64,000 nucleotides of DNA from a virus (Duplodnaviria; Caudoviricetes): IMG/VR virus record IMGVR_UViG_3300033121_000971, positions 1 to 64,000 of that record. One strand, 5' to 3'. The notes beneath the pieces are model-generated. The model was not told where the DNA came from, made no database searches, and saw nothing but the letters and a program-made list of their open reading frames with translations. Positions 11,345-37,987 of this stretch are shown here, in pieces. Position 1 is the stretch's first letter; each line of letters starts with the position of its first letter. Both the position numbers and the translations under genes were made by a program.

Positions 11345-11782
11345 GTGAATGTTTTATATGCACTGGTCATGACAAAGATTATTACCGTAAACATAAATAC
11401 CCTAACGAACTTGATTTATTTAATTCTTAATTATTTAGTCGGTGGATTAAAACTCTTAGCCCTTATAAGTGTTTTCCAGTTACAAATTAACAGTTATTCA
11501 ATTAAAGAAGATGTTTATATAAATTTTATAGACTCTTCTTTTCTGGTTGATGACAGCGTAGAATATTACTCTTCATTTGAAGTTGCTCAGGATGGAACTT
11601 ACTGCAGTATTAATGTTACAATCCAGCATGAGGAAGAATTTACAATGTATTTAGTGTTTCACGAACTATTTCATTACATGAATTACATTGAATGGTTAAA
11701 TGATTCTAATACTCCTATATGGGGCGAAGAAGAGGTTGACGAGAAGGCATACGAATTTTTAAAATTGTATAAGAATGAGTAA
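11345..11782 (+). CDS. putative zincin metallopeptidase (start uncertain)
   Basis: FHELFH (HEXXH) and downstream EEEVD. Confidence 0.55.
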   Translation: MNVLYALVMTKIITVNINTLTNLIYLILNYLVGGLKLLALISVFQLQINSYSIKEDVYINFIDSSFLVDDSVEYYSSFEVAQDGTYCSINVTIQHEEEFTMYLVFHELFHYMNYIEWLNDSNTPIWGEEEVDEKAYEFLKLYKNE

Positions 11783-11978
11783 ATTAGGTCACATAAAAAA
11801 AGCATTGGAGACAATAGTTAAAGATAGTATCCCTAACAAGAGACCTAAGACTATGGAAAGCTCTTCACCAAAAATGAGTGAGAGCTCACCTAAGATGAGT
11901 GATTTAGGAACTGGTAAAATAAAAAAAGATTATACTTTAAGTGAGGACGGTTCTTACAAAATGAGTGATTATGTTTAA
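11775..11978 (+). CDS. small tag-bearing protein with short internal repeats
   Basis: MSKLGHIKKALETI; SSPKMS repeated twice. Confidence 0.65.
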   Translation: MSKLGHIKKALETIVKDSIPNKRPKTMESSSPKMSESSPKMSDLGTGKIKKDYTLSEDGSYKMSDYV

Positions 11979-12010
11979 CAGTAAATAATTAAACCTTAAA
12001 AATAAATAAT

Positions 12011-12520
12011 ATGTTACAAGATACAATACAAATAGTAGCAGGTGGTGGGCTAGAAGACCTTAGTTGGTCAACCATGTGGGTGAACTATGTAGAATTTATT
12101 ATACTCGGTCTGTTGTCAGCTCTTGCTTACTTCTGGTTCGTAATAAGAAATGCTAAAGAAGATTCAGATACATTCAAAGAATTTTTCTCAATAAGAAAAA
12201 ATCAAAACGATGTAAGTCTGCATTTAATACTTTACTTTGGTGTTGTACTTATTTGGGTTTTAGAAGGCGGAGTTGTACTTCCGATGCTACTTCTTGAACC
12301 TGTACGTGGAATGTTTGGATTAATAAACATTGACATTACTCAGCAAGTAGGTACAGTGTATGCATCATTCAGAAGCTGGATGCCTCAAGGAAAGTTGAAT
12401 TGGTTCTCTATAATTTTAGGTGGAGGTATGACATTCTTTGTAAGAATGGTTGTGCCTAGACTAGTAGAATTTATTAAAGGTGCTTGGGGTAAATTTACTG
12501 GATTATTTTTAAAGAACTAA
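12011..12520 (+). CDS. membrane protein, holin candidate
   Basis: about 3 TM segments, near endolysin. Confidence 0.5.
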   Translation: MLQDTIQIVAGGGLEDLSWSTMWVNYVEFIILGLLSALAYFWFVIRNAKEDSDTFKEFFSIRKNQNDVSLHLILYFGVVLIWVLEGGVVLPMLLLEPVRGMFGLINIDITQQVGTVYASFRSWMPQGKLNWFSIILGGGMTFFVRMVVPRLVEFIKGAWGKFTGLFLKN

Positions 12521-12533
12521 TAACTGGTATGGA

Positions 12534-13004
12534 ATGGCAAGAAGATATAAGTCTCAGGAGACAGAGTACAGTTGTGGAAGCAGTGCTGTTAGAAATATTC
12601 TTATCCATTTCAAAATAGCAGACGTAACAGAAGCTACAGTAAGAAAAGCTTGTGGCACTACTAAAAATAATGGAACTACTGAAGCTGGTTTACTGGAAGG
12701 GTTAGAGTATTATGGGTTGCAGACTAGAGAATGGGAATCAATATCTTCACAAGTATTTAAAAGTAAGGTAACGAAAGCTTTAAAATCTGGTCGGGCAATA
12801 ATTCTTAATTCAGATGCTCTTCATCACTGGATAGTAGCTTTAGAATATAAAAATAAAAAAGTTAGAATAATAGATTCACTGTTTAAAGATTCACATAAAT
12901 CAATTGACCAGTGGGTAACACTTAAACAATTATCAGAGATGTGTGATTGTTACGATAGAGAAAGACAGAAAAAATATTTTTATGGAATAGAAGCATGGGT
13001 TTAA
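12534..13004 (+). CDS. C39-like cysteine peptidase
   Basis: QETEYSCG, HWIV, IIDS catalytic motifs. Confidence 0.75.
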   Translation: MARRYKSQETEYSCGSSAVRNILIHFKIADVTEATVRKACGTTKNNGTTEAGLLEGLEYYGLQTREWESISSQVFKSKVTKALKSGRAIILNSDALHHWIVALEYKNKKVRIIDSLFKDSHKSIDQWVTLKQLSEMCDCYDRERQKKYFYGIEAWV

Positions 13005-13450
13005 AAGAAATAAAGAATACGTTGATTAAGCTGTGTGGTTCTAAAATTATAGCTTACCATGCTACTACTAATGAGTATGATTTTAAAGATATGAAAATGC
13101 CAGCACATTTTGGAACTTACCAAGCATCCTTAGATGCAATTGGTCAACACGGTAAAGTCTTAAAAGCTTATATTGATGTTAAAAACCCTATTAGACTAGA
13201 AGATGATTCAATTAAAGATTGGGGGACAAGTACAGTAAGAGGTAGTTTGCTTTATGAGTATAATATTCCAGAAGAAGAGATACTAAAGTTTGAAGAGGAA
13301 TTTGGAGAAGAGGTTGGATTAGTAAAACTTCTCCAGAGTAGAGGGTATGATTCAGTTGTATACATGAATGAGTATGAGGACGCAGGAAATGATTCTTATA
13401 TTGTTTTTGAAAACAGCCAAGTAACTCCAATAAAAGTAATAACAGTATGA
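12995..13450 (+). CDS. tag-bearing ADP-ribosyltransferase-like protein (polyvalent-protein type)
   Basis: YHAT...HFGT...AYIDVKNP...GYDSVVYMNEYE...SYIVF pattern after N-terminal LKEIKNTLIKL. Confidence 0.65.
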   Translation: MGLKEIKNTLIKLCGSKIIAYHATTNEYDFKDMKMPAHFGTYQASLDAIGQHGKVLKAYIDVKNPIRLEDDSIKDWGTSTVRGSLLYEYNIPEEEILKFEEEFGEEVGLVKLLQSRGYDSVVYMNEYEDAGNDSYIVFENSQVTPIKVITV

Positions 13451-13935
13451 TTGAACTAATATATTTCCTCATAGCAAACGCTACAGTACTGGCACATGCC
13501 ATCCCAGATTTTATAGTGTGGTTCTTTCTTGCAAAAGAAGATATCAACTGGAAATGGACAAAGATTTTTCGTATAAGTAAATTTATGTATGACTTTCCAG
13601 TAACTTTTGCTGTACTCTTTTGGGTACTAGGTCTTCCATTAGATATAATAGGCTGGTTCTACATGTTGAAGTGGGCTCATTGTGCCGATAGTTGGTACAA
13701 CATATTTAGTTTTATGTTTAAGAAACCTGTAGAGAACAAACAGGCTTTCTGGAGATGGTGGGTCTTCCCTTATATCTTTAAGAGTAAAGTAATATATCAA
13801 GAGATACTGGCTCACTGGCTGATAAGAATAAATATAATAAAAGCAAGAGTGGATAGAAATCAAGCTTGGTATTCATCAATAGGTATGGAGATAACATTTA
13901 TAATTTATTTGGTGGCAAGATATTGGGTAAGCTAA
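13447..13935 (+). CDS. membrane protein
   Basis: Trp/Phe-rich hydrophobic segments. Confidence 0.6.
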   Translation: MIELIYFLIANATVLAHAIPDFIVWFFLAKEDINWKWTKIFRISKFMYDFPVTFAVLFWVLGLPLDIIGWFYMLKWAHCADSWYNIFSFMFKKPVENKQAFWRWWVFPYIFKSKVIYQEILAHWLIRINIIKARVDRNQAWYSSIGMEITFIIYLVARYWVS

Positions 13936-15215
13936 AAGAAGTAAAAGTTAGACAGTACCTTTATCATAAATCTTTAGCTAAAAATAGAGAAAGCATTTTT
14001 GAGTACGGGTTGGAGCCTAGGCTAGGAAGATATTCAGAAGGGTATTACAGTGGTGAGCCTGCTATATTTTTGACTAACTCTTCAAAGGCAAAGGATTGGT
14101 TTGAAACAGGATTTCATGAAGATGTATGGCAGATAGATACAAAAGGTCTTTCTAATACATTTTATATAGACCCGTTTTTTGAAAATTTATCTGGTGGAGA
14201 TTATAAACATGTGCTTACGTTCTCTCATATACCTCCAGATAATTTACAATTAGTTTATGAAGGTGATGATAGAGACCAATACAGTATGACTAATGACGAA
14301 AGAATGAAGTATGAAACTATAAAACCTATTGAATCATTGAAGCATATAAAATCAACATTAATAAAACTCAATAGCAACATCCTTGATATGACCAATCCAG
14401 TAGATGCTACTGTGAACAGGTCGGATGCTTTACAAGCAGAATTGGATAAGATAAAAGAAGAAGCTAATAACCCATATGCAGACAAGAGGCAACTGGCAGA
14501 GAGGGCTGAGGAAATTATGCTGGAGCATGAGATATTAACAAGAGACTTAGAGAGTCTTGGTAATGTTAGAAGTGTATTGATAAGACTTAACGGTTATGAT
14601 GAAGAAGCTTATAACAGTGCAAACCAGTATCTCCAGAAAGCAGGACTTCCAGAATTGCAATATCATGAACCTGTAAAGTCTGACCCTGTTCGTGGAAAAG
14701 AAATTGCTAAAGCTTATGAGGCAATGAAACATGAACCAGAAAATCCAGAAGTAATAAAAGCATATCGGCAGTTTGCAAAAGAAGTTGAGAATCAGTGGGA
14801 ACATTTACCTGTAAAAGTAGAATTTACTGACGGTGACCCTTACAAGAACTCAAAAGAAATGTTTCAGGATATACTTCAGAACAAAAGACTAAAAGTTTTC
14901 CGTGGTGGTGAACCTCATGGATTTTTAAGTGCAAAAGATTCTAACGGTATATCTGTAAATGAAAAATTCAGAGCTGTGCATGATTACTTCGGACACTTCA
15001 TGGCTAAATATCAGTTCGGAGCATCAGGAGAACAGAATGCATATCTTGAGCATGCTAAGATGTTTTCACCTCTTGCCAGAAAGGTAATGGCTACAGAAAC
15101 TATGGGTCAGAATAACTGGTTTAACTATTCTGATGCAAATGAAGGGAAACATCCTAAAGAGAGACAGTTTGCAGAGCAAAAAGCTGGGTTTCTTCCAGAA
15201 GAGTATTTAAAATAA
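13923..15215 (+). CDS. multi-domain tag-linked protein: ART/Tpt1-like domain, helical domain, RAVHDYFGH domain
   Basis: LYHKS...GLEP...AIFLT; two internal tags; TTG 13923 start inferred from 17-bp identity with start of ORF 17880 (ORF track: 13866). Confidence 0.65.
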   Translation: MGKLKEVKVRQYLYHKSLAKNRESIFEYGLEPRLGRYSEGYYSGEPAIFLTNSSKAKDWFETGFHEDVWQIDTKGLSNTFYIDPFFENLSGGDYKHVLTFSHIPPDNLQLVYEGDDRDQYSMTNDERMKYETIKPIESLKHIKSTLIKLNSNILDMTNPVDATVNRSDALQAELDKIKEEANNPYADKRQLAERAEEIMLEHEILTRDLESLGNVRSVLIRLNGYDEEAYNSANQYLQKAGLPELQYHEPVKSDPVRGKEIAKAYEAMKHEPENPEVIKAYRQFAKEVENQWEHLPVKVEFTDGDPYKNSKEMFQDILQNKRLKVFRGGEPHGFLSAKDSNGISVNEKFRAVHDYFGHFMAKYQFGASGEQNAYLEHAKMFSPLARKVMATETMGQNNWFNYSDANEGKHPKERQFAEQKAGFLPEEYLK

Positions 15216-16352: not shown

Positions 16353-17513
16353 TTGAACGAGAAAGCTCAAGTAACGTTTCCAGATGACACAGAAATAAGC
16401 TGTGTTATTCTGGGAGAAGACGAATTGGGTAATTATAAATGCTCAGCTCTGGAGAGTAATGGAAAATATAAACAGGGTGATATCTTTTATTGTAACGAAG
16501 ATACTCACGAAATAGTAAAGACAGCGAAATTGACAAAATTATCTGGATTAAAGAATCTTCTTTCAAACGAAATAAAAAAATATCAATGGGGATTTGATAA
16601 CCACAAATCTCCATGGAAGTATAATAAAATTACTGGGATGATTGAAAAAGACCCAGAAGCCGTTAAGAAATTAGCTAAGCTGTTAAAGACTGCCATGGGT
16701 ATAGACCATGCTCCTGATGTGTATGATGAAGGATTTCAACCTAGTACTTACGTAAAAGTTAATAATGCAAATGAGATAGTGTCTTTTTATGATAAGAACT
16801 ATCCTGATTTTGACTTGCAATTTGTAGATTTTAATAAAGTTGATGTTGAATCTTTTCCAGAAGATATGACTTTAGAAGAAGCACGAGAACATGTTGAAAG
16901 TACAGATTATCAATTGCATTGGCGTAACAGTCGTGGAATAAAATCTTTAAGTAAGCTTTTAAAAACCTCTTTACAAAGTGGAGATGAGTACTGGGATAAT
17001 GAAGATTACGGTCAGACACCACGTAAAGAAGTACGTTACGCAGTAGAGGCTGATTTCTATGTGTATGCTACTTCTGATGAAGAAGCTTTTCAACAGGCAG
17101 ATGCAGTAAAAGAAGTTTTGGAAGATAAAGAATTACCTGAAGTTTTAAAAATAAGTGATTTTGAAATTAAGAATATTTACAAGATTCCTACTGGAACAAT
17201 AAATTTTGATAATAAGCCTTTACAAAGGCAGTCTAAATTAAGTGGTTTAAAGTTTCTTCTTTCACATGCTTTAGACCCAAAGATTGAAACAAAATTTGAC
17301 AATAGCCTGAAAGCTGTAAAGTATCACTTATTTCAGTATTCTGGAAACGATGATGTGAAGGAATTACAGACGGTAGCAGATTACTTAAATGATTTATTAA
17401 TGGTTACAAAAGAACAGATTGCCAATCATCACACAGATGAAAGACCTGAATTCAAAGGTAGTCATTCAAGTGAACAGGCTACGTTTAACGCAATGCAGGG
17501 AGGAACTGATTAA
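16353..17513 (+). CDS. multi-module protein with repeated KL...L(L)KTA/S linkers
   Basis: KTAKLTKLSGLKNLLS, KKLAKLLKTA, SLSKLLKTS, SKLSGLKFLLS separating short domains. Confidence 0.65.
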   Translation: MNEKAQVTFPDDTEISCVILGEDELGNYKCSALESNGKYKQGDIFYCNEDTHEIVKTAKLTKLSGLKNLLSNEIKKYQWGFDNHKSPWKYNKITGMIEKDPEAVKKLAKLLKTAMGIDHAPDVYDEGFQPSTYVKVNNANEIVSFYDKNYPDFDLQFVDFNKVDVESFPEDMTLEEAREHVESTDYQLHWRNSRGIKSLSKLLKTSLQSGDEYWDNEDYGQTPRKEVRYAVEADFYVYATSDEEAFQQADAVKEVLEDKELPEVLKISDFEIKNIYKIPTGTINFDNKPLQRQSKLSGLKFLLSHALDPKIETKFDNSLKAVKYHLFQYSGNDDVKELQTVADYLNDLLMVTKEQIANHHTDERPEFKGSHSSEQATFNAMQGGTD

Positions 17514-17879: not shown

Positions 17880-18131
17880 ATGGGTAAGCTAAAAGAATTA
17901 GAAAACAGTTTAAAAGTATTATCTACTGATAGAAGTTGGTATGATGATAGTACTCCAGCAGACAGTGGTGATAAGATTGCTCAACAAGTTGGTACTTCAG
18001 TGCTAAATTTTTTAAATATAAAAGTGGGCAGTAACGGCAGAGTTAACACTTCATATGGAGCTAAAAGCATAGTTGGAGTTGGTCAGGCTATTATAGACAC
18101 GGTTAATAACTATAGTAACTCAGGTGTATAA
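17880..18131 (+). CDS. small tag-bearing protein
   Basis: MGKLKELENSLKVL N-terminus. Confidence 0.65.
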   Translation: MGKLKELENSLKVLSTDRSWYDDSTPADSGDKIAQQVGTSVLNFLNIKVGSNGRVNTSYGAKSIVGVGQAIIDTVNNYSNSGV

Positions 18132-18304
18132 TGACCTTCCAGAAAATAATAGAATATTTATTAAGATTTCTTAATATACCAGCACACGCATTTGGCACCC
18201 TTACTATTAAATTTCAAAGAGGTGAAGTAAAGCATATAACATTTGAGGAGTCATTTGATTTGGAAAGTTTAAAAGTTTCTGAATTAAAAATAGAGAAAGC
18301 GTAA
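18131..18304 (+). CDS. 57-aa hypothetical protein
   Basis: TAATG-coupled ORF read manually (MTFQKIIEYLL...). Confidence 0.55.
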   Translation: MTFQKIIEYLLRFLNIPAHAFGTLTIKFQRGEVKHITFEESFDLESLKVSELKIEKA

Positions 18305-18306
18305 CA

Positions 18307-18471
18307 ATGGCATTTGTAAAGTTTGGAACAAAAAATACTAATGATTCTGATTCAAGCAAACTTCTTACTGAAGTAATACTTGAAGACGGTAAAATAACAA
18401 AAGAGTCTAAATTAAAGAAAGTAGTTGAGTCTACTGATGTTGAAGAGTTTAAAAAAGAAAACAAAAATTAA
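18307..18471 (+). CDS. 54-aa hypothetical protein
   Basis: fills gap on coding strand (MAFVKFGTKN...). Confidence 0.55.
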   Translation: MAFVKFGTKNTNDSDSSKLLTEVILEDGKITKESKLKKVVESTDVEEFKKENKN

Positions 18472-18482: not shown

Positions 18483-19088
18483 ATGGCAAATCTTATCTTA
18501 GTAAATTCCTCATCATCAATTGTTAGAAACCTTGACAGTGATAGAGGTGATAGAGAAAACACATATGCACAGTGGACTATTGCAGGTGGTGGAACATTAG
18601 CTATTGACGAAGCGGAAATAAGAGTTCCTTTCGACAAAAGTATTCCACAAGCACTTAAAGACGGTCAGGTTACTACAACCGAATCAGCTTTAGATGCATT
18701 AACAAGGCTTGATGTAAAGAACTTTGTAGCAGAAGGTCTTGGCTTAAAGTATTACAACACAAACAGTGTGCTTTTAAAAGCTAACAGAGCTGTATATGCA
18801 ACTCCAGAGACTGGATTTATTGCATATCCTTCAGCAGACGGTGGAACAGTAACAGGTATTGTTAGACAGGATGCAACTGGTTCAACAACTTATGTAAGAG
18901 TTCAGACATCAGGTTCAGTAACTGTAGAATTAGGCGGAACTGTTGCTCAGGGTGATTACTTAATGTCAGATACAACTGGTAGAGCTATTGTAGCTACAAG
19001 TGGTAAAAAAGCATTCGGTGTTGCTCCTTCAGCAGGTGCAGTTAACGATACAAAAACAGTTACTCTTAGCTTCACAACAAGACCGTAA
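18483..19088 (+). CDS. capsid cement/decoration-like protein (DUF2190-like C-terminal domain)
   Basis: VRVQTSGSVTVELGGTVAQGDYLMSDTTGRAI...FGVA pattern; followed by terminator. Confidence 0.65.
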   Translation: MANLILVNSSSSIVRNLDSDRGDRENTYAQWTIAGGGTLAIDEAEIRVPFDKSIPQALKDGQVTTTESALDALTRLDVKNFVAEGLGLKYYNTNSVLLKANRAVYATPETGFIAYPSADGGTVTGIVRQDATGSTTYVRVQTSGSVTVELGGTVAQGDYLMSDTTGRAIVATSGKKAFGVAPSAGAVNDTKTVTLSFTTRP

Positions 19089-19165: not shown

Positions 19166-19810
19166 TTGATAACAAAGACTGCAAGTAACTACAAAGTAAA
19201 AAATTTTGATGAGCTTATACTTGCTTTACAGAAATTAAAAGAGAACTCAGGCAGATTAACCTTACCTGAAGGTAAATCTCAATTGATAGATTCAGGTACT
19301 GCAAGTCTAATGTTACAGCTTAATGACAAACTCACAGACCCAAACATAAGACCTAAGTTTGAAGCAGATATTATGACTTGGGCTGGATTTTTACGATTAG
19401 CAAATTTTGCATGGGGTAAATCCTCATTTAATAAAGATATGACAATACAATCAATAAAAAAAGTTTTACAAAGGTTACTTAAAACTTCTACTGATGAGCT
19501 TGGTGGAATCCATGATATTGATTTTGCCCAGTGGGAAGGTGATGGAGTAGATGAAGAGACCGATGCCATCAACATGCAGAAAATGATTAGTTCAGGGCAG
19601 GCTTGGACTATGCAAGGTAGCTATGGCAGAAGTGCTATGCAGTATTTAGAGGCTGGCATGTGTATGTTAGGCAAAGAAGGTCATAATGACTATTATGGAA
19701 ATTACGTTCCATCCAGAACTGAAGTAAAAGCTGGAACTAAAGGTTCCGAAGCTTTATGCAAGAAAAATTATCCTGACCTTTATAAAAAGTATATAAAACT
19801 AGGCTTATAA
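19166..19810 (+). CDS. two-domain tag-linked protein
   Basis: MITKTAS start, internal IQSIKKVLQRLLKTS, C-terminal QGSYGR...DYYGN domain. Confidence 0.65.
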   Translation: MITKTASNYKVKNFDELILALQKLKENSGRLTLPEGKSQLIDSGTASLMLQLNDKLTDPNIRPKFEADIMTWAGFLRLANFAWGKSSFNKDMTIQSIKKVLQRLLKTSTDELGGIHDIDFAQWEGDGVDEETDAINMQKMISSGQAWTMQGSYGRSAMQYLEAGMCMLGKEGHNDYYGNYVPSRTEVKAGTKGSEALCKKNYPDLYKKYIKLGL

Positions 19811-19811: not shown

Positions 19812-20012
19812 ATGTATTTAAAAGATATAAAAAATACTTTAATCAAATTGAATACAGAATTTGGAACTCAGTTTTTGAAAATAACAACAAGGGATTTAGA
19901 TAATATCGAAGATTTGATACGAAGCTTAAAAACTATGTCTAACTTTGGGGCAAGCGGGCTGGTTAGCTCTCTTGAGTCAATTGTTAAAAACGTAAGAGGT
20001 TATAATACATAA
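19812..20012 (+). CDS. small tag-bearing protein
   Basis: MYLKDIKNTLIKL. Confidence 0.65.
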   Translation: MYLKDIKNTLIKLNTEFGTQFLKITTRDLDNIEDLIRSLKTMSNFGASGLVSSLESIVKNVRGYNT

Positions 20013-23000
20013 ATGGCTTTCATAAAAAGAGCACAATCAAAATTCAAAGTAGAGCAGGTTTATAGCTATTCTGATTTACAGGAAGGTCTTGTAAAAGTAG
20101 CTGGTAAGAATGTAACTGCTAAAGTAATAAACAAGATATCAAGCATTCCAGCAATTCAAGCTGAGCCTGATAATTATTTGTATATACGTAATAGAAGTGT
20201 CTCAGGTTTAGATACTTGGGGCTTTAATTCTAATTTTGATGCATTCCCTTCCGAAGAGTTACAATCAGCATACAAAACATTTGTACGTGTAGGTATTTCT
20301 GTAGACCATATTAACAATGGAGAAGAAGATTTAATAGGTCTTGTTCTTGACAGTGAGTATGTTCCTAAACAGTTATACTGTATAAACGACAATACATTAT
20401 TTCCTTTCTCAGAAGAGAAGAGAGCTTCTTTAATAAAAGAAGGTAAGAAATTAAAAGTTGTTGGAGACTATGTAGAGAATTTACTTTGCATAGATAAAAA
20501 ACTTGCTAACGAAAAACGTGCAGGACTTGTACAGGCTATCCTTAACGGAGAAGTTACAGATACAAGTATGGGTACAAGTGTACAGGAATCTGAATGTTCA
20601 ATCTGTGGTAATGTAGCCAGAGGCGAACACGAGTACTGCGAGCATATAAAGTGTAAACGTTGTGGTAACAGAGCTCCTAAGAATGGAGAAAAAGAGTGTC
20701 TTCATAGCAACGATAAAGGTAGAATGATTTCTTATAACGGTCATAACCCTAAGTACTGCTATGAAATAAACAGAGGACTTGATTTCTTTGAGGATTCTAT
20801 TATCCTTTCTGAAACCTTTGCTAAAAAATCTGGTGCTACAGCTCAGGCTGGTGGAGAAGGTGCTGATACTGGTGCTAAGATTCTAGAAGTAGTTGCAAAC
20901 AAGAAACCTTCTATACTTGATGAAGTAAAGAAGAGAGCTAATGTTGGTACTCTTTCAGATGACACTATTGTTATCGGAGAAGAGCCTAAAGAGCTTGAGC
21001 AAAAAAGAGAAGAGTATGAAGAAAGCCGTGAAGATTATTTTGAAGATGGTAAAACTTCAATGAAGATTGAAGATAAAGATATTACTGCTTCAACATTAAA
21101 ATCTATTGCCAAAAATAAAAAAGATTATTCAGAATTTGAAAATGAAGTTTCAAAAGTAGTAGGTAGCATCTCAACACCTTCCAGAATTAAGCTAAGAAGT
21201 TTTTACAAGACTTTTCAGGAAAGACACAGAGATGAAGTGCTTGCTGTTGCTAAACATATAGTTGATACTCAGGACGGAATAAATCAGGAAAGCTTAAAAG
21301 AAAGACTTGCAAGCCACGGATTTAATCAGAAAGAGATTGATGAAGCTTTAGCTTATCAGGTTAAAGTAAAAGGTAACTATGATGTCTCATCTAAGCTTAA
21401 AAACTTCCTTGTGGAAGGTATGAAGCTTTACAATGAGATTGACAAGACTGCTGACCTTCAGGGAGCAAATTATGCTAATACAATGAACACTGGATTAGCT
21501 GAGCTTGTTGACAGATACAATGATTCTAAGATGGATGACTCTGGTGACTTAAACGAAACCAAGGGAGCTGATGGAAAAAACTATATAGGTTCAGAACCTA
21601 TTGGTGAAACCAGAAGCATGAAGAAAACAGCCGACCTTAAAAATGAAATTTTACAATTTGTAAATGGTCAGACTGAAACTCCTAAAGAAAATATCTTTGG
21701 AAGATTTGGATATCAGCCAGAAGTAAATCAGGCTATTGATGATTTAGTATCAGAAAATAAAGTTACTGTAGATGAGTTTGAATCAGTTCATCCAGTTACA
21801 GATGATATTAATAATGCAGGAGCAACCGCAGAAGCTCAGGAAAATGTATCAGTAGTAGAACCTTCTGAAACAGATTCTTTTGCTAACGTTGAAGCTTTTG
21901 AAAAGTATTTAGTAAACCCTCAAAGTGATTGGGTAATATTATCAGCAACAGACCAAAGTAAAACAACTGATGCAAACGGTAATTCAATACCTGCATACTT
22001 AAATCCAGAGAACATAGAAGCAAATCAAAAACTTCTAACAGATATTAAAGCTCTTGGATTTGATGCAGTTGAAGCTCAAGGAGTTTATTTAAACAGTCCT
22101 GAAGGAAAAAGCTATCTTGTAGATGGTGCTTCCCTAAAGGATGGAGTATTCCTTGGACTAAAGTATAATCAGGAATCAATTTTAATTCCACAAGGTATTT
22201 ACACATTGCCTAAAGCTGGAAGTGAAAATATAAAATCTCCTAATGATGTTTCTGAAGCTTTAATACATCAAGGTGAGCTTGCTCCAGCAACTACATCTGG
22301 AAATCAACCTAAAGTTTACTGGGGAGACTTAGCAAAAGAACAAGATGGTTACACAATGCTAAGCATTGGTGGTGAGGATGTTGCATTCTCATTTGATATT
22401 GACTGGAACGGTATAAAACCTTTCGGACAATATTTAAGTAAGACTTCTGGACTTGTGGAAGATGAAGCTAAAGATGCTCAAGAAGTAAAAGATGATGCAG
22501 AGATAATAAAATACACTGATGAGGACTTAACAAAAGAAAGTAAAAATACAATGATTGAAAGATTAGAGCTAACAGCCAGAAGACTGAATAAAGCATTTGA
22601 AAAATTTGCTGGTATTGACATGAACAAACACATCTGGGAAGGTTGGACAGTAGGTAACTTTATAGAGGAGCTTGAGCCTTCATTTGACATGATTATGCGT
22701 GGTCAGTCTCATCAAGAACCTTTTAAGACAGTAGCTGAAGTTAAGAAATGGTGTATGGAAAATCAACCTTACTATAAGAAGTATATACCAGATGTAGTAT
22801 CTTACTTTTGGAATAAGGTTCAACAGAACTCTAACAACAGGTTTGCTAAAAAAGATTCTGACAAAGTAAAACAAGACAAAATGGATATCGGTGGAGTAGG
22901 TAGCCCTGACTCTGACGGTCATTATAATACAGAAGAGATGGATTTAAGCCAAGGTTCTGGTGACCCAGCTAACTATAAAGACTTGAAGAAAAATCAGGAT

Positions 23001-24518
23001 TCTGAATTCACAACTGATGAAGATGGTATGGTTCAGAAAGTTAAAGCTTTACAACAAAAGTTGGCAAGTGGTGCAGTGAACAATAATTTAATGCCTTCTT
23101 CAAAAGGTAAATGTAGTTGTGGCAGGTCTATGAGTATTGGCGAAGCCACATCTGGCGTAAGTCCTTTTGGGTATGTTTGTCCTGATTGCAAACATAGAAA
23201 GCACAGCCCAACTTCAAGAGAAGATTACTACAAGCAGTTTGGAATTACAGATAATAATAATAATAATAAACTTGGAGATATTAAATCTCATCTATCTGAA
23301 CTGACTGATGACAGAGTAGAAGACGCTGAAAAAGATAAAGAAGACTACGGCTTTGAAATGAATGATGAAATTCTTGATGACAAAGAAATCAAAGGTAACA
23401 TGGAAGACACTTTGAAAGATAAGAAATCAAACAGAATGTTTGAAGACTATGATAAAGAAAAACCTGAAAAAGAAGAAGATGAAGTCGAAGAAACAGTAAA
23501 AGAGGCTAAGAACGCATTTGAAAAAATGAACAATGCTATGACTCTTGATGCTACTCCTTTAAATCTTGATTCAGAAAACTCTTCAAGTCTCGGAACAGAA
23601 ACAGATAACCTAGGTAATGAAGACCAGTCAGGTATTGGTAAAATCATGTCCTTCTTAAAAGACACTATGTCTGCTATGGATGATTTTGATACTCCAGAGC
23701 CTATGGATTATTCTATCAAGACTGATGAAGATGGTGTAAAGGATTTTGAAAATAAGACTGCTAGTATAAAGGTTGACCCAACTAAATTCAAATCAGGTTT
23801 CCAAGAAGGTGACCGTATAGATTTAGATGACCAGCATTCAAGTAGGTATGTTGTAGTACGTGATGGTTTTAATAGAACTTTTATTGTTGCTGATAATGGT
23901 GAAAGAAGAATGCAGATAGTAGATAGAGGTAATGTAAGGTTTGACCCACCTCTTAACAAGCCTGCTCTTAAAGGAAATTTATCTCTGTCAGATATCTTAT
24001 CTAAGAAAACTGCTGGAACAATCCCTTACAACATAAACCCTAACGACCCAGTAGAAGTTAAAAATGAAACTGGTGGAACAGAGACAACAGGTACTGTTAC
24101 AGATGTAAAAGAGGAAGTTAATCCAGACGGTTCAACATCTCCTACAGTTGAGATGAGTGACGGCAAAACATATCCTGCTGATGAACATATGATTCAGAAG
24201 ACTATGAATAAGTCAGCTAAGCTTTTAGAGCTTGAGACCATGGATTTCGGAGATTCTGAAAAGCTTTCAAAACTAGCTAAATTAGAAGTAGAAGCACTTG
24301 AAGTTCCAGAACTTATAATTACTTCTGCTGTACAGGATTCTACAGAAGCAGATGCTATGATATCTGACAACGAAGCTGGGGAAGTATTCGATTCTGAGCC
24401 AGTTGTTAAAAGGTCAGCTATAAAGCCTAAAGTAAATAATGGATTTACTATAAACACTCACGGTTCATTAAAGCCTAGAAATGCAGAATTGAACATTGAT
24501 AATATGTGGGATGAGTAA
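20013..24518 (+). CDS. head maturation (prohead) protease fused to long acidic multi-domain extension
   Basis: NSNFDAF...VDH...DTSMG...CSICGN...CEH...FFEDS N-terminal domain; upstream of decoration and MCP genes. Confidence 0.72.
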   Translation: MAFIKRAQSKFKVEQVYSYSDLQEGLVKVAGKNVTAKVINKISSIPAIQAEPDNYLYIRNRSVSGLDTWGFNSNFDAFPSEELQSAYKTFVRVGISVDHINNGEEDLIGLVLDSEYVPKQLYCINDNTLFPFSEEKRASLIKEGKKLKVVGDYVENLLCIDKKLANEKRAGLVQAILNGEVTDTSMGTSVQESECSICGNVARGEHEYCEHIKCKRCGNRAPKNGEKECLHSNDKGRMISYNGHNPKYCYEINRGLDFFEDSIILSETFAKKSGATAQAGGEGADTGAKILEVVANKKPSILDEVKKRANVGTLSDDTIVIGEEPKELEQKREEYEESREDYFEDGKTSMKIEDKDITASTLKSIAKNKKDYSEFENEVSKVVGSISTPSRIKLRSFYKTFQERHRDEVLAVAKHIVDTQDGINQESLKERLASHGFNQKEIDEALAYQVKVKGNYDVSSKLKNFLVEGMKLYNEIDKTADLQGANYANTMNTGLAELVDRYNDSKMDDSGDLNETKGADGKNYIGSEPIGETRSMKKTADLKNEILQFVNGQTETPKENIFGRFGYQPEVNQAIDDLVSENKVTVDEFESVHPVTDDINNAGATAEAQENVSVVEPSETDSFANVEAFEKYLVNPQSDWVILSATDQSKTTDANGNSIPAYLNPENIEANQKLLTDIKALGFDAVEAQGVYLNSPEGKSYLVDGASLKDGVFLGLKYNQESILIPQGIYTLPKAGSENIKSPNDVSEALIHQGELAPATTSGNQPKVYWGDLAKEQDGYTMLSIGGEDVAFSFDIDWNGIKPFGQYLSKTSGLVEDEAKDAQEVKDDAEIIKYTDEDLTKESKNTMIERLELTARRLNKAFEKFAGIDMNKHIWEGWTVGNFIEELEPSFDMIMRGQSHQEPFKTVAEVKKWCMENQPYYKKYIPDVVSYFWNKVQQNSNNRFAKKDSDKVKQDKMDIGGVGSPDSDGHYNTEEMDLSQGSGDPANYKDLKKNQDSEFTTDEDGMVQKVKALQQKLASGAVNNNLMPSSKGKCSCGRSMSIGEATSGVSPFGYVCPDCKHRKHSPTSREDYYKQFGITDNNNNNKLGDIKSHLSELTDDRVEDAEKDKEDYGFEMNDEILDDKEIKGNMEDTLKDKKSNRMFEDYDKEKPEKEEDEVEETVKEAKNAFEKMNNAMTLDATPLNLDSENSSSLGTETDNLGNEDQSGIGKIMSFLKDTMSAMDDFDTPEPMDYSIKTDEDGVKDFENKTASIKVDPTKFKSGFQEGDRIDLDDQHSSRYVVVRDGFNRTFIVADNGERRMQIVDRGNVRFDPPLNKPALKGNLSLSDILSKKTAGTIPYNINPNDPVEVKNETGGTETTGTVTDVKEEVNPDGSTSPTVEMSDGKTYPADEHMIQKTMNKSAKLLELETMDFGDSEKLSKLAKLEVEALEVPELIITSAVQDSTEADAMISDNEAGEVFDSEPVVKRSAIKPKVNNGFTINTHGSLKPRNAELNIDNMWDE

Positions 24519-25713: not shown

Positions 25714-26604
25714 ATGTCAGAAATAAAAAAACTTAGCAGAGAAGAGCAATATAACAAAGACCTTCGTAAAGAAGCTTTGTTAAAACAGGCTATGAAGTCA
25801 CCTGCTGGTCTTAAAAAGATTACCAGTGCTCTTAGCAATCCAGTAAGAAAGAAACTTGACTACGTAGGTATCTCAAGAAAATTCGTTGTTACTGAGCTGT
25901 GGGCTGAAGGTATGCCTTTAATATTCGACAGAGATGTTGAAGAATTTACAGCAGTTGTTATCGGTAAAAACGGTAGTGCAAGGTATCTTGAAGTAGAGGT
26001 TGAAAGAGTTGAATTAACACCTTTCGAGGTTGTTGTTAACCCTAGAGTACCTTACAGAGAACTTTACAGCAGGTTATATCAGGTTGTAAAAAGAGTAAAA
26101 GAGAGAATTGAACAAGCTATGGCTTTAAGAGAAGACTTAATATTCTTCTCAGCTTTAGAGGATGCTTCAACAGCTTATCATCCTACAACAAGTGTGGCAA
26201 CATACTTAACAAAGGATGCTCTTGCTAGAAGCTTCACACCTTTAGAGAAGAACAGGTTAGTACCTCAGAATATTCTGATGACAGCTTATGGTATCCAAGG
26301 TATCAGACGTTGGCAGTATCAGGATATTGATGACACAGCTCGTATGGAAATCAGAAAATCTGGATACTTAGGTAGTATCTGGGGTGCACAGATGTACATT
26401 TCCGACCAGATTAACATGGGTACATACTATGTTATGGCATCTCCTGAGTTCCTCGCTTGGCAACCTTTTAGGAAAGAAGCAGAAGTAATTCCTGCTGATA
26501 GTCCTGAGAACTTAACACTTGGATTCTTAGCATACGAATACTATGCTCTGTTGATTCACAACGTGTTAGCATGTTTGAAGGGTACCTTCAGCGTAACTGC
26601 CTAA
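25714..26604 (+). CDS. major capsid protein (HK97 fold)
   Basis: NPVRKKLDYVGISRKFVV...FDRD...GYLGSIWGAQM; recalled resemblance to Bxz1-type capsid proteins; followed by terminator. Confidence 0.85.
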   Translation: MSEIKKLSREEQYNKDLRKEALLKQAMKSPAGLKKITSALSNPVRKKLDYVGISRKFVVTELWAEGMPLIFDRDVEEFTAVVIGKNGSARYLEVEVERVELTPFEVVVNPRVPYRELYSRLYQVVKRVKERIEQAMALREDLIFFSALEDASTAYHPTTSVATYLTKDALARSFTPLEKNRLVPQNILMTAYGIQGIRRWQYQDIDDTARMEIRKSGYLGSIWGAQMYISDQINMGTYYVMASPEFLAWQPFRKEAEVIPADSPENLTLGFLAYEYYALLIHNVLACLKGTFSVTA

Positions 26605-26695: not shown

Positions 26696-27397
26696 ATGAA
26701 AAAAGTTTGTACTAAGTGTGACGTTGAAAAATTACTAGAAGATTTTCCTAAAAATAGTACTAGAAAAGATGGGCATGCAAGTTGGTGTAAAGTTTGTAAT
26801 TCAAACTGGAAGAAAGATAATAAAGAACATATTTCTGACTATAACAAAGCATACATAGAAAATAATAAAGAATATGTTGCAGAGTTAAAGAAGAAAAATT
26901 ACGATGAAAATCGTGATAGTATTTTATTAAAGCATAAGAAAAAAAGAGAAGAAAACTTAGAAGAGTATAGAGCACGAGATAAAAAACGTGACGATGCACG
27001 CAAAGATGCAAGAGTAGTCTACTCTAAGAAGTGGGCACAACGTCCTGAAACAAAAGTAGTAAGAGTTAATGCTCAAAATAAGCGAAGAGCGAAATACAAA
27101 GAGACAGATATAACCACAGAGTGGCTTACAGAATTAAGGGTGTTAACAGTACATTGTCCGACATGTAACTGTGAAATGATTGAAGACGGACTTGCCCAGA
27201 ATGGGAAAACATTAGACCATATAATTACACTAAATACGTTTGGAACTCACACCATGGACAACGTGAGATATATTTGCAGAAAGTGCAACAATTCCAGACC
27301 TAAAGATAATAGTGATGTTGAAGAAAGTTTTATTACAGAGTTTAAATTTAGACATAATGTTGAAGAGGAACAAAAAATAACCTTAAAAAAGGAATAA
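26696..27397 (+). CDS. HNH homing endonuclease
   Basis: N-terminal CxxC...CxxC; CPTC...TLDHII...H...N...CRKCNNSR. Confidence 0.85.
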   Translation: MKKVCTKCDVEKLLEDFPKNSTRKDGHASWCKVCNSNWKKDNKEHISDYNKAYIENNKEYVAELKKKNYDENRDSILLKHKKKREENLEEYRARDKKRDDARKDARVVYSKKWAQRPETKVVRVNAQNKRRAKYKETDITTEWLTELRVLTVHCPTCNCEMIEDGLAQNGKTLDHIITLNTFGTHTMDNVRYICRKCNNSRPKDNSDVEESFITEFKFRHNVEEEQKITLKKE

Positions 27398-29617: not shown

Positions 29618-29883
29618 TGTTTAAAACAGCTAAAGAAGAAGGCAGTGAAAAATTTAGAGTAGACCCTTTTAAAAAAGTAGTCTATGAACAGGAACCAGAA
29701 GAAGATGAGACTGAAAAAGTTTCTGAAGATGATTTTTCTAACAAAAGTTTATCCGATAAGCTTGATGTAATATTTGACATGTTGAAAGACATGAATAGAA
29801 AAATAGATGAGAATCAAAGACAGAACGCTGGAGCTTTGGAAGATTTAAGTTTAATTGCTGGGAGGGAACATGAAGGAAGTTAA
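29617..29883 (+). CDS. small acidic protein starting MFKTA
   Basis: TAATG coupling. Confidence 0.65.
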   Translation: MFKTAKEEGSEKFRVDPFKKVVYEQEPEEDETEKVSEDDFSNKSLSDKLDVIFDMLKDMNRKIDENQRQNAGALEDLSLIAGREHEGS

Positions 29884-30247
29884 AGATTTTCTTAATGCGA
29901 TGCTCTCTACCAGAGGGGAACCAAAAAAGATTTTATCCGTACTAAAAGGAGATTACACTCCAGAAGTACAGGAAACCTTTATTCAAAAAAGAGCCAGACT
30001 GCAAAAACTAGGCTGGGAAAAAGTTGCCAGACTTGCAAAGACTAATAGTAATATAGATACTACTTCCAAGGATGGAGATAAAGTTTTAATTAAGTTGGAT
30101 AGTTTACTAGATTGGAAACAAAAAGAGACCTTCATGAAACATTATATGAACGGTAACTTTGAAATAGATGGAGTTTACTTTAGTGAGCTTGACCCCATGG
30201 AGCAGAGCAAGATTAGAATAAAGTTTAATGATTTAAGATATTCCTAG
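29870..30247 (+). CDS. hypothetical protein
   Basis: ATG 29870 after GGAGG. Confidence 0.65.
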   Translation: MKEVKDFLNAMLSTRGEPKKILSVLKGDYTPEVQETFIQKRARLQKLGWEKVARLAKTNSNIDTTSKDGDKVLIKLDSLLDWKQKETFMKHYMNGNFEIDGVYFSELDPMEQSKIRIKFNDLRYS

Positions 30248-30296: not shown

Positions 30297-30944
30297 TTGT
30301 ACGAACCAATAGTCTATACAGGAAACGAAGGTCTAGAATTCATAGTCAATAATGGAGCTATGTGGTTAGACACATCTACTCTAATACAAGTAGAGGAAGC
30401 TTTTATTCTAGGCTTACAGAACTGGATTACCTATTTACAGGAGAACGGGCACTACGATGCTACTACAAAGACCTATATAGCCTCTGTATATGCTCAGGAG
30501 AAAGCTCAGGCTCATCAGATAGCTGTAGAGGTTACTACCTCAGAAACAGAAGCAGAGGGGCTAGGACAGAACGAGAGACAACTATTCTGGAAAGATGGGG
30601 ATGAGACTAGAGAATTTTTAGTTAAAGGTGGAGCTTTCACTTTTAATGTTGTTTTGCATTGCAATAGTGTTACAAGAGCTTCGGCATCTTACTTGGCTGA
30701 TGTTGTAAAATTAGGACTGGAAACTGAAGTTGATAATTACTTGTCAAGCATTGGAGTTAACATTCCAGCATCAAGTGTATCTATCAGTGCTCCGAAAGTA
30801 GAAGACATTACAGCTAACATGAAGAACTGGTCAATAGACGTTAGTATAAATAAAGTTTTAGTTTATTGGAACCGTGTTCTGGAAAAAAGCGGAGAAGTTT
30901 TAAGAAATTATAATTATTATTTAACTAGATTGAATGGCTCTTAA
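30297..30944 (+). CDS. tail terminator-like neck protein
   Basis: alpha/beta pattern and synteny only. Confidence 0.45.
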   Translation: MYEPIVYTGNEGLEFIVNNGAMWLDTSTLIQVEEAFILGLQNWITYLQENGHYDATTKTYIASVYAQEKAQAHQIAVEVTTSETEAEGLGQNERQLFWKDGDETREFLVKGGAFTFNVVLHCNSVTRASASYLADVVKLGLETEVDNYLSSIGVNIPASSVSISAPKVEDITANMKNWSIDVSINKVLVYWNRVLEKSGEVLRNYNYYLTRLNGS

Positions 30945-31437
30945 CCTTAATACTATAAAACAATTTTTCCTTCAGGAGTCTAAACGTGGAGTCGTTGATG
31001 ACAAGATTCTGAACGAACTTCAGGTTGATTTGATAAGAGTGTATGAAGATATGTACTCCACTCAAGTAATGTATGATGATATGCAGGAAAATCCTGAAAA
31101 GTATTTTGCAGGTGAAGCATTTTTAAATTCTCCTGACTTTTTAGATGACCCTTTTATTGAGAATGAAACAGCTTTTGAAGAGATTCAGAGAAGATTGCCA
31201 AAAGCTCAAGTAATTTCTATGAGTGCTACTTATACTCCAGAGATGTTAAAAGAAGTGTTGAGTAAATTGAAAAGGGCAAAAACAGATAAGCAAAAAATTA
31301 TTGCAATAAATGAAGCTTTAAACCAAGCTCATGACTCTGGAAATATTCTGGGACAAGATTATGATAATCTTAGAAATTCCCTTGGTAAAAAACTTAGTAG
31401 TATAAAATCAATTTTAATTAAATTAATAAATGGGTAA
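30934..31437 (+). CDS. tag-bearing hypothetical protein (tag at C-terminus)
   Basis: ends KKLSSIKSILIKLING. Confidence 0.65.
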   Translation: MALNLNTIKQFFLQESKRGVVDDKILNELQVDLIRVYEDMYSTQVMYDDMQENPEKYFAGEAFLNSPDFLDDPFIENETAFEEIQRRLPKAQVISMSATYTPEMLKEVLSKLKRAKTDKQKIIAINEALNQAHDSGNILGQDYDNLRNSLGKKLSSIKSILIKLING

Positions 31438-33496: not shown

Positions 33497-34248
33497 TGTC
33501 AAACTTATCTATAATATATTTAGGCAATCAACCTACTCTTAAATGGTCTCCTTTTCCAGATTCTATAAAATATAGAATCTACAGAGGCACTACAAAAGAT
33601 AATCTGGAAAAGTTAGCCGATACAGATTTACTTCAGTATCAAGACAATTCTCCAGAAGCAAATCTTATGAAAAAATTTGATAGAGTAAAGTACTTTTATC
33701 AAATTGCTTCAGTAAGAGAAGACGGTACAGAGGAAAAATTTTCTGATATAATAAATTGTTATCAGGAAATAAAATATCCTTATGCTGGAATTCTTAAAAC
33801 AATTGTAAGAAGAAATAATTTAATGCTTGACAGAATGACTGGGGAGGATTGTACCTTCTATATAAAGAAAGGTGCAGGTCAAAGATGTCCTGATTGTTTT
33901 AATGAAATAACCAGAGACGTTGACAGTGAAAGTCCTTTCTGCAGTACTTGCTATAACACTACTTTTGTAGGTGGTTATGTTCAGGTACAGGGTAAAGTAA
34001 GAATTAAGAATGCTACAGAGCAGGAAGTAAGAACACTCTATGGTATGGTAATTGAATCTAATGGTAGAGTTGGCTGGACAGCAAATTACCCTCTAGTAGA
34101 TAATGGAGACTTGATTAAAACTATTTCTGGGGAGATATATGTAATAGATAACTTACTAAGAAGAAGCCAGAAGGATTTTGTTACTTTACAGACTTTTACC
34201 GTTAAAACATTGAAAACTACTGATAACCTATACTCTGTTGTAGTATGA
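33496..34248 (+). CDS. neck/head-closure-like protein with Zn finger
   Basis: FN3-like N-terminus; CPDC...CSTCYNTTFVGGY; synteny. Confidence 0.55.
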   Translation: MSNLSIIYLGNQPTLKWSPFPDSIKYRIYRGTTKDNLEKLADTDLLQYQDNSPEANLMKKFDRVKYFYQIASVREDGTEEKFSDIINCYQEIKYPYAGILKTIVRRNNLMLDRMTGEDCTFYIKKGAGQRCPDCFNEITRDVDSESPFCSTCYNTTFVGGYVQVQGKVRIKNATEQEVRTLYGMVIESNGRVGWTANYPLVDNGDLIKTISGEIYVIDNLLRRSQKDFVTLQTFTVKTLKTTDNLYSVVV

Positions 34249-34718
34249 CTTTAAAACAAATTAAAGCTATACTTAAAAAATTAGTTTCTACACTAAATCC
34301 TGAAGATTACATTGATACAGTATCTAGTATTATGGATACAGATTTAGAAGATGCTGAAATTACAGCTTACGAACTTGTTAAAGAGTATAATTCTCTTCCT
34401 GACCCGTTTTTAGTTTATAGAGGTATAAGTTTAGGGCATCCTTCTGAGTTTAGTTATGAGTATGGTAAAGCTGTAGAAGATGGTCAAGGTCACTCATGGA
34501 CTACAGAAAAATCAGTAGCAGAAAGATTTGGTAATTTTATACTATGTGGGCTTGTAAAAAAAGTAGCTGTAGATTGGGATATGACTGTCCATAATAGAGT
34601 TTACTTTCTACTCGAAGATGAGTATGAGATTGTAGTACATGACCAGAAGAAAGTAAAATTGTTAAAAATAGAAGATTCTAATGGAAATGATGTGACCAAA
34701 TTGTTTAAATTACAATAA
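34245..34718 (+). CDS. tag-bearing ADP-ribosyltransferase-like protein (R-S-E type)
   Basis: VYRGI...SWTT...EYEIVV after MTLKQIKAILKKL. Confidence 0.62.
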   Translation: MTLKQIKAILKKLVSTLNPEDYIDTVSSIMDTDLEDAEITAYELVKEYNSLPDPFLVYRGISLGHPSEFSYEYGKAVEDGQGHSWTTEKSVAERFGNFILCGLVKKVAVDWDMTVHNRVYFLLEDEYEIVVHDQKKVKLLKIEDSNGNDVTKLFKLQ

Positions 34719-35008: not shown

Positions 35009-35024
35009 AATGAGGAACTAACCC

Positions 35025-36716: not shown

Positions 36717-36728
36717 TAGGAAAACAAA

Positions 36729-37280
36729 ATGTCAGGTACATTTCAGAAAAATATTGGATTAGTAAAATCTAAAACTCCGTTGCAAGATACTAAAAATCGT
36801 GACGGAGAAGTTTTACTTTCTACACAGATTTCTATATTAGACCAAGATGGGTATGCCATCGGTTTTATAACTGGGTTTACTCCTTCACAAACTAGGTCTA
36901 CAGAAAGAATAAGACACATATCTCATGCTGATGCTGGGCGTGTTATTGAGCAAGCTCCTAAACCTGAAGATGTTAGCATCCAAGTGAATGGCTTTGCTTT
37001 ATATAACACTGTAGCAGAAAAAGGAAATTTAGCACAGAGATTAGGTGCTTGGAATCCAAGTCGTGCATTTGCATCACTTCAAGAACAGCAGTATGGGTTT
37101 ACTTTAATAGTAGTAGAAAAGAATCCTAAAACTGGTGAAACAGCAGATGTAAGAGAATATCAAGACTGCTGGCTACAAAGTTATAGCAAACCTATCAGCG
37201 TAGGTAATGCTACTATTAGTGATTCTGCATCTATATTTGCAAGTAGGATAGTAAGACCAGACAACTGGAAAGCTCTTTAA
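36729..37280 (+). CDS. tail tube protein
   Basis: follows sheath; AIGFI...QTRSTERI...YQDCWLQSYS pattern. Confidence 0.8.
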   Translation: MSGTFQKNIGLVKSKTPLQDTKNRDGEVLLSTQISILDQDGYAIGFITGFTPSQTRSTERIRHISHADAGRVIEQAPKPEDVSIQVNGFALYNTVAEKGNLAQRLGAWNPSRAFASLQEQQYGFTLIVVEKNPKTGETADVREYQDCWLQSYSKPISVGNATISDSASIFASRIVRPDNWKAL

Positions 37281-37292
37281 TAGGGGGCTTCC

Positions 37293-37736
37293 ATGAGTCT
37301 AAAACCTTTAATAGCCACACTTAAAGAACTGACTAGCAGTTTTTTAGAAGACAATATGGAAGTATTAAAAGATTTAATACTTTTACACAGAGAAGGCAAG
37401 AGCCAGCAAGAACTTAAAAGCTTGCTGGTACAAGAGAACAAGTACAACAGAAAACAAATAAAAACTTTACTTACTTGGGTTGAACGTTTTGGAGACGACC
37501 AAGCAGAGCTACAATATTTATTTACAGACAAATCTGTAAGTGATAAAGGTGTCATAAGCAAAGCTTCTATAGACCACTTCTTAATTAATTTTCATAACAA
37601 TCTTGATGCTCTAAAAGGTAAAAACTTGGCAGAGCAGAGACAGATATTACACACTATAAATAACGGCTTACAAGGTCTAGATAAAACTATCTCACTTATA
37701 AATAGTAATCTGAGTAAAGGTGTAATAATACAATGA
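37293..37736 (+). CDS. tag-like N-terminus helical protein
   Basis: MSLKPLIATLKEL. Confidence 0.65.
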   Translation: MSLKPLIATLKELTSSFLEDNMEVLKDLILLHREGKSQQELKSLLVQENKYNRKQIKTLLTWVERFGDDQAELQYLFTDKSVSDKGVISKASIDHFLINFHNNLDALKGKNLAEQRQILHTINNGLQGLDKTISLINSNLSKGVIIQ

Positions 37737-37987
37737 AAAATTTAATTGTCACACTAAGGAAGGTATGTGAGTCTCAGGATGACCAAGTTGCTGAATTTCC
37801 AGAGTACAAAATACTAGAAGAGATACAAGGGTTACAGGATGCTTTTAAAAGCTTGTACCAAACTAAAGATTTAGCCACACAAGAACGAAGAATTAAAGAA
37901 CTCGCTTCTGTAGCTTCTAACATTAAGAAGACTATGGAATACTTAACCCACATGAACCAAAGTGGTAAAACTATAAAATTTGTTTAA
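37733..37987 (+). CDS. small helical protein
   Basis: MKNLIVTLRKV; ATGA coupling. Confidence 0.6.
   Translation: MKNLIVTLRKVCESQDDQVAEFPEYKILEEIQGLQDAFKSLYQTKDLATQERRIKELASVASNIKKTMEYLTHMNQSGKTIKFV

Follow-up and report, generated by a model that had tools for sequence, protein, structure and literature searches.

What decides which proteins a large phage carries into its next host? To our knowledge, this choice is understood in molecular detail for T4 only and partly for P1, and the question is raised by the head-gene region of the uncultured virus IMGVR_UViG_3300033121_000971, where about a dozen otherwise unrelated proteins share one short helical peptide, called the tag hereafter. The window analyzed is the first 64 kb of this 159.5-kb record (G000), whose 246 proteins comprise 49,286 residues; its guanine-cytosine content is ~34% and essentially every gene lies on the + strand. 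The tag is a 12-residue amphipathic helix with the consensus x-L-K-x-I-K-x-x-L-x-K-L; its hydrophobic residues at positions 2, 5, 9, and 12 line up as a stripe, and its I-K-x-x-L core is nearly invariant. A preliminary description of the window had quoted 14 such peptides and proposed that they form a portable packaging signal. All 14 translate exactly as quoted at their coordinates, and all-against-all BLASTP of the tagged proteins found no further similarity between them, in line with the view that the carriers are otherwise unrelated. Our analysis showed that the recurrence of the tag is real and selected as a peptide, and that the tag is the exact edge of module swaps, fusions and fissions; it may be a docking helix by which accessory modules are directed to the virion.

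The recurrence was assessed against shuffled proteomes. A strict pattern built from the copies matched seven times in the whole proteome vs. 0.18 times in residue shuffles, with all seven matches between 12,995 and 34,718, and a position matrix gave 11 matches with a score ≥16 vs. 0.07, also proteome-wide. Since these patterns were built from the copies themselves, each copy was additionally scored by a matrix made from the other copies (leave-one-out). Seven copies are strong by this measure, with ≤0.05 equal-or-better matches per shuffled proteome: the N-terminal copies of open reading frames (ORFs) 12995, 19812, and 34245, the first internal copy of ORF 13866, the internal copy of ORF 20013, the C-terminal copy of ORF 30934, and an additional N-terminal copy found beyond the window, at ~137,834, behind an ORF of 1829 amino acids (aa). 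Five more are moderate (37293, the second internal copy of 13866, 19166, 17880, and 11775); they find 0.5–6.5 matches anywhere, though far fewer at a start codon, and are backed by an exact N-terminal position or by orthologues. For these 12 supported copies the excess over shuffles is large. Three of the 14 quoted peptides are at chance level and unsupported as tags, namely the weak copy of the 84-aa ORF at 37733..37987 (+; leave-one-out 7.0, with ~11 equal matches per shuffled proteome) and both internal copies of the 386-aa protein at 16353..17513 (+; scores of 4.9 and 0.7). Seed-free clustering of all N-termini returned two classes alone, signal peptides and the tag, and the same two in a relative. 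A loose core pattern was found at 11 N-termini in G000 vs. 1.5 expected, and at nine in the relative G001 vs. 0.5 expected.

The tag is confined to one block of the genome. In G000, 12 of 13 copies fall within 11.7–37.7 kb. Landmarks of this region are the portal protein at 4858..7665 (+; PHROG 16240, E-value = 1.2e-39), the major capsid protein at 25714..26604 (+; PHROG 2522, E-value = 1.4e-40), which has 35% identity to the major head protein of Bacillus phage G, the sheath gene at 35025 and the tube gene at 36729; scaffold-like proteins are encoded at 18483 and 24606 and a decoration-like one at 25084. The genomes compared were G001, a whole 157-kb relative with a capsid protein 73% identical to that of G000; the near-identical phages L019 and L020 (99–100%); L009 (90%); L014 and L017 (70–81%); and the more distant L010, L011, L012, L015, and L016, which have the same head genes. 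In G001, a complete genome, all 13 matrix matches lie between the gene directly upstream of the portal gene and just past the tube gene, and the remaining ~120 kb gave none.

Each lineage appears to use its own version. The tag of G001 reads N-I-K-x-I-K-x-x-L and is present at seven or more N-termini plus several internal sites; L014 and L017 also have lineage-flavored versions, and in L009 the motif is restricted to larger proteins, where it is internal or C-terminal. Mean 12-mer similarity is 22.4 within a lineage vs. 15.5 between lineages (label permutation, p = 2e-4) under a scoring matrix that was seeded from two of the lineages. A matrix made from the tags of one phage transfers poorly to the other (G000/G001), which we read as lineage divergence of the tag; the two versions seem to be linked mainly by the I-K-x-x-L core and by position. 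A conserved small protein of 83 aa (17880..18131, +; N-terminal tag 17880–17921) has orthologues in G001 and L017, and it bears the G000-type tag in G000 and the G001-type tag in both orthologues. Such orthologues carrying the version of their own genome are the pattern expected if one partner governs all tags of a genome. As a separate observation, Bacillus phage G (L013, examined both at record positions 3313–44122 and as a whole record) has a recurrent N-terminus of its own, M-K-R-L-I/V-K, with six occurrences on its forward strand, none in the control and several looser variants near head genes.

Conservation of the tag is at the peptide level, as codon sharing among copies shows: where residues are shared, synonymous codon identity is 0.41 vs. 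0.36 expected from codon usage. Six different leucine codons occur at the invariant leucine positions, the codons of leucine and isoleucine vary freely, and the DNA upstream of the copies is unrelated. Neither a DNA signal nor gene conversion nor recent duplication therefore accounts for the conservation of the tag.

Comparison with L019 and L020, which were used for boundary mapping at the nucleotide level, places the tags at the edges of swaps, fusions and fissions. Homology between G000 and L019 extends from a C39-like peptidase gene through the tag of ORF 12995 (12995–13033) and stops at 13033–13039; behind the tag, the ADP-ribosyltransferase domain of G000 is replaced in L019 by an unrelated domain of ~112 residues, and homology is back at the next gene. 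The 67-aa accessory ORF at 11775..11978 (+; N-terminal tag 11775–11816, with a weak leave-one-out score of 8.4 at an exact N-terminus) is entirely missing from L019, while the 66-aa accessory ORF at 19812..20012 (+; N-terminal tag 19812–19850, score 23.5) is entirely missing from both L019 and L020. The 167-aa accessory ORF at 30934..31437 (+; C-terminal tag 31390–31425, score 21.5) is missing from L009, G001, and L010, in which its two neighbors adjoin. Just past the tube gene, the 147-aa accessory ORF at 37293..37736 (+; N-terminal tag 37293–37331, score 12.7) has no orthologue in G001, where the tube gene and the next gene adjoin.

Fusion and fission at the tags are seen in the longer proteins. 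The gene at 19166..19810 (+) encodes, in this order, a conserved N-terminal domain, a tag at 19442–19480 that directly follows an in-frame methionine, and DUF7417 (Pfam PF24192). Immediately before this tag, at exactly 19434–19442, L019 and L020 contain additional modules headed by tags, and in L009 DUF7417 is part of the protease polyprotein. ORF 13866, which probably starts at the TTG at 13923 (13923..15215, +), encodes a multi-module protein with a weak tag-like N-terminus and internal tags at 14334–14369 and 14553–14588. In L019 the segment behind the second tag stands alone as a gene of 221 aa that starts with that tag (90% identity), and one L019 protein of 623 residues has four tags. 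Internal copies are thus best interpreted as fused tag-headed units. ORF 29855, probably starting at the ATG at 29870 (29870..30247, +), encodes a small protein with a weak tag-like N-terminus; its homologue in L009 is the last 86 aa of a protein of 829 aa, where the 29855-type helix sits at an internal junction. With respect to ORF 30934, it was also observed that its tag-bearing end overlaps the start of a 688-aa ORF at 31430 (overlap region 31420–31440), which is read in a frame offset by one base. With a +1 shift, the tag would come directly before the 31430 protein.

The copy at ~23,270 had been placed inside the head protease. Its actual place is residue 1086 in a polyprotein of 1501 aa (20013..24518, +; tag 23268–23303), far from the N-terminal protease domain, as the prohead-protease match (PHROG 18299) is limited to the region near the N-terminus. 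The N-terminal ~340 aa and the last few residues are kept in all relatives; the middle is variable, and in the relatives its length ranges from nothing to ~1700 residues. The tag comes after a poly-asparagine run, and the L020 counterpart is without it. The conserved C-terminal end of the polyprotein (24440–24518) has a motif of Asn-x-Phe/Trp followed by two acidic residues, which is also present in the equivalents of L009–L017 and G001. In the distant relatives this motif ends a separate large protein directly before the decoration and capsid genes. The motif may mark the end by which a scaffold-like protein binds the capsid.

The reading that we favor, with a probability of about one half, is that the tag is a portable docking helix addressing accessory modules to the prohead or virion, as a variant of the T4 capsid-targeting sequence. 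It would act as a handle marking effector-type modules to be built into the virion as it assembles, with the prohead interior as the most likely destination, by binding a prohead component (scaffold, core or capsid interior). We infer that the tagged proteins would be packaged and injected, traveling along with the DNA, and that the tag would stay uncleaved. The unit would be a tag plus a domain, encoded singly, in strings, or fused to head polyproteins, and as the tag would be its sole constant part, new cargo domains could displace old ones directly behind it.

The nature of the cargo is consistent with this role. Searches of Pfam and PHROG assigned no function to most tagged proteins, and blastn of the head region against isolate phages gave no matches. 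The protein at 12995..13450 (+; tag 12995–13033) matches the ART-PolyVal ADP-ribosyltransferase domain (Pfam PF18760) with 33.6 bits, the curated cut-off being 31.2. Its AlphaFold2 model has a predicted local distance difference test score (pLDDT) of 89.7 and shows the tag as a separate, low-confidence helix (residues 3–13), with the enzyme core from residue 17. Foldseek matched the model to the ART domains of PARP proteins with a probability of 0.9–1.0 and modest template-modeling scores (TM-scores) of 0.40–0.46; the first match was a pre-ejectosome chain of cyanophage A4, part of an internal capsid complex, with a modest TM-score too. The assignment of 12995 to ART-PolyVal, with a predicted ADP-ribosyltransferase fold, is firm. 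This domain has 751 relatives at an E-value ≤0.001, and most of the best 150 of them are embedded in proteins of 1000–5800 residues; tblastn of the protein against isolate phages gave one marginal match, and its closest solo relatives lie on contigs of only ~1 kb. N-terminal address peptides seem common on the ART-PolyVal family, since six of 36 solo relatives from other sources begin with a T4-like targeting pattern vs. ~1 expected.

A second tagged protein (34245..34718, +; tag 34245–34283, leave-one-out 19.6) has a weakly DRAT-like, i.e., possibly ADP-ribosyltransferase, domain; its protein-atlas neighbors include DRAT clusters, which we take as a lead only. In L009 this domain forms the N-terminal part of the 829-aa protein that matches 29855 at its C-terminus, and L011 and L015 have fused polyvalent proteins of ~1060 residues in the head block, each clearly combining at least two effector domains. 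In the G000 window, no more than one recognizable effector domain was identified per protein. As domains that are tagged here are fused into polyproteins in relatives, the same domains seem to have two routes into the head gene block, covalent fusion and a position behind a tag. Confinement to the structural block, the ART-PolyVal cargo, and the fused domains of the relatives would all fit a virion-cargo role.

Several points weigh against this reading. The presence of the tagged proteins in virions is deduced from sequence, and several tagged genes adjoin tail genes, so that the destination could be elsewhere in the particle. In L010, L011, L012, L015, and L016, no N-terminal tag was found up to 10 kb from the capsid gene, and the seeding of its matrix, given above, burdens the comparison of lineages. 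Internal and C-terminal copies are unneeded for targeting and need explaining as fusion products. Finally, no protease site was found behind the N-terminal tags, neither Leu/Ile-x-Glu nor K-T-A, and in this the tags depart from the T4 rule of "target then cleave". The initial proposal of a portable packaging signal is thus partly supported: its portability is upheld by cargo swaps, fusions and fissions that fall at the tags, while loading into heads, injection and processing are presumed.

The helix could instead be a coiled-coil assembly handle, by which modules bind each other or a non-head part (neck, tail lumen or capsid surface) to form a multi-protein complex. Its narrow i, i+3, i+7, i+10 stripe is heptad-like, several proteins have two to four copies, and tagged genes flank the sheath and tube genes too. 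A helical hairpin in the AlphaFold2 model of 13866 starts with one tag and ends with the other, although this model, from a four-row alignment, is of low confidence (pLDDT of 43.6) and too poor to rely on. Twelve residues are short for a stable coiled coil, and an ADP-ribosyltransferase cargo would be expected to act within the host cell, which internal packaging fits better than surface display. We consider such a handle unlikely.

Quite unlikely in our judgment is a role as the recognition leader of a protease, either the C39-like peptidase or the prohead protease, that would cut multi-module proteins or remove the leader, so that fused and split forms would give the same products; such cleavage would suit the free fusion and fission at tags. 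The C39-like cysteine peptidase (12534..13004, +; 156 aa, untagged; Pfam PF03412, E-value = 2.8e-10, above the cut-off) is encoded directly upstream of tagged gene 12995 and overlaps its start in G000, L019, and L020. A C39-family peptidase with intact catalytic-type residues is present in both tag-bearing genomes, Q8, C14, H98, and D114 being kept in the G001 homologue. C39 enzymes recognize amphipathic helical leaders ending in Gly-Gly, and the tag is an amphipathic helix of similar length beside what looks like a competent peptidase. About one third of the tags are followed by x-Gly and one L019 copy by Val-Gly-Gly. However, the glycine is not conserved behind the tag, Gly-Gly (or Gly-Ala/Ser) occurs in a minority of copies, the hydrophobic spacing is unlike that of double-glycine leaders, and the tag has internal copies. 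The peptidase is also a stand-alone protein of 156 aa with no fused ABC transporter. It is linked to tagged genes in G000, L019, and L020 but unlinked in G001, where its gene is among small early-like genes, far from tags and head genes; a search for the C39 family in viral contigs recovered G001 alone. In G000 the gene belongs to a lysis-like cluster, and among solved structures the nearest in sequence to its product is a cell-wall endoisopeptidase, with a weak match. This cluster (10361–13004), located between the portal and head genes, also holds two membrane-protein-like ORFs and an endolysin-like protein of 307 aa, and the N-terminus of the C39-like peptidase matches an endolysin PHROG as well.

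Cleavage by the prohead protease was considered in the same context. The proteome has 27 copies of the tripeptide K-T-A vs. 11.7 ± 3.4 in shuffles, and the tripeptide is ~six-fold denser in head genes: 15 of the 27 are in the 8,372 residues of head-region proteins (window 4858–31000), several of them near N-termini, with the portal tail, 15273, 16353, 19166, the polyprotein, 24606, 28757, and 29617 as carriers. It is probably the cleavage motif of the prohead protease. The tag of 19166 runs into L-K-T-S and the repeats of 16353 end in L-L-K-T-A/S, which would favor a protease leader, but K-T-A is missing behind most tags. Protein 16353 has three repeats ending in L-L-K-T-A/S and two K-L-S-G-L-K-x-L-L-S repeats, and these may be protease-site repeats rather than tags.

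Very unlikely is a tag that has no function at the protein level and either serves as a joint for recombination or is left over from one ancestral segment that was duplicated. The breakpoints of swaps, insertions and deletions do fall at tag ends, as a joint would predict, but synonymous sites are scrambled as codon usage predicts, which largely refutes this explanation, and the six leucine codons at invariant positions, a consensus kept as amino acids that differs between lineages, and the unrelated flanking DNA speak against it as well. Chance in an AT-rich proteome rich in lysine, leucine and isoleucine could account for the three quoted copies at chance level and finds some support in the generic amphipathic pattern (87 occurrences vs. 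50 in shuffles), but for the 12 supported copies it is refuted by the excess over shuffles, the exact N-terminal placement and the confinement to one block in two genomes, and its probability is negligible.

A docking helix can be compared with known ways of loading virions. T4 internal proteins share just a 10–19-residue N-terminal capsid-targeting sequence, which binds the prohead core and is removed by the prohead protease (PMC3012670, PMC9026906); near the N-terminus, the hydrophobic residues critical to it have i, i+3 spacing (PMC9026906). As with IPI, IPII, IPIII and the Alt propeptide, a short N-terminal peptide alone is common to unrelated, fast-evolving proteins, one cargo is a predicted ADP-ribosyltransferase, and the cargo set varies among close relatives. 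The tag sequence is nevertheless unrelated, and the IPII and IPIII N-termini of the T4 record share only the i/i+3 hydrophobic spacing with it. It is longer (12–13 residues with four hydrophobic positions), has no Leu/Ile-x-Glu or other recognizable site behind it, and occurs in at least 13 copies per genome, internal and C-terminal ones included; in the lineage bearing it, the capsid protein is small and of the phage-G type, and the protease is joined to a long polyprotein. Unlike in T4, the function of the tag is a putative one. In P1, the first 30 residues of DarB target a reporter to the capsid (PMC9024508), so that there too an N-terminal peptide directs an anti-defense protein, and a reporter, into the capsid (PMC9024508). 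DarB, however, is one protein and not a family of tagged cassettes, its peptide has no sequence resemblance to the tag, and packaging in P1 requires an ordered set of Dar proteins.

Polyvalent proteins, for which Iyer et al. (2017) argue for packaging and injection (PMC5512222), and MuF-fused effectors offer the same repertoire among virion genes (ART-PolyVal here; 2H phosphoesterase and Acb1-like domains in relatives), and the covalently fused form is present in L011, L015, and L009. There, a giant single polypeptide is anchored by a structural domain, whereas here a common peptide heads each module, and many modules are encoded as separate genes or in short chains. The arrangement also recalls polymorphic toxin systems, which are bacterial secreted toxins with immunity genes and in which a short conserved peptide, the pre-toxin motif, precedes variable domains exchanged by recombination. 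It differs from these in that no immunity-like partner was seen and the tag DNA is not conserved.

A broader proposal, which we put forward only tentatively, is that phage-G-related phages of low-GC hosts possess an open cargo system in which any domain behind an uncleaved 12-residue helix, N-terminal or internal and co-evolving with a prohead receptor, would be loaded and co-delivered with the DNA, the helix also being a fixed joint for very rapid exchange of effectors between phages. If true, it would be a phage counterpart of the cassette switching of polymorphic toxins and a natural short tag for capsid loading. A second sequence-defined tag, unrelated to that of T4, would make the injected arsenal of an uncultured phage lineage readable from sequence, and would let one trace, down to the nucleotide, how near-identical phages exchange anti-host effectors. 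It would also provide a short candidate handle for testing protein loading into capsids.

Some further features of the window were noted. Four tRNA genes (Met, Thr, Asn, and Trp) are located at 3133–4129, upstream of the portal gene, and several short listed ORFs in this interval are translated tRNA genes. Downstream of the 17880 gene, two small ORFs of 57 and 54 aa (18131–18471) correspond to the first and second halves of one 104-aa protein of G001, and represent either a split gene or an unrecognized frameshift. The site directly downstream of the capsid gene is occupied by a homing-type endonuclease that differs among relatives (window 26696–27397; L014 4619–5353; L012 11007–12248; L009 13899–14633), being of the HNH type in G000 and L020, GIY-YIG in L014, and LAGLIDADG in L012.

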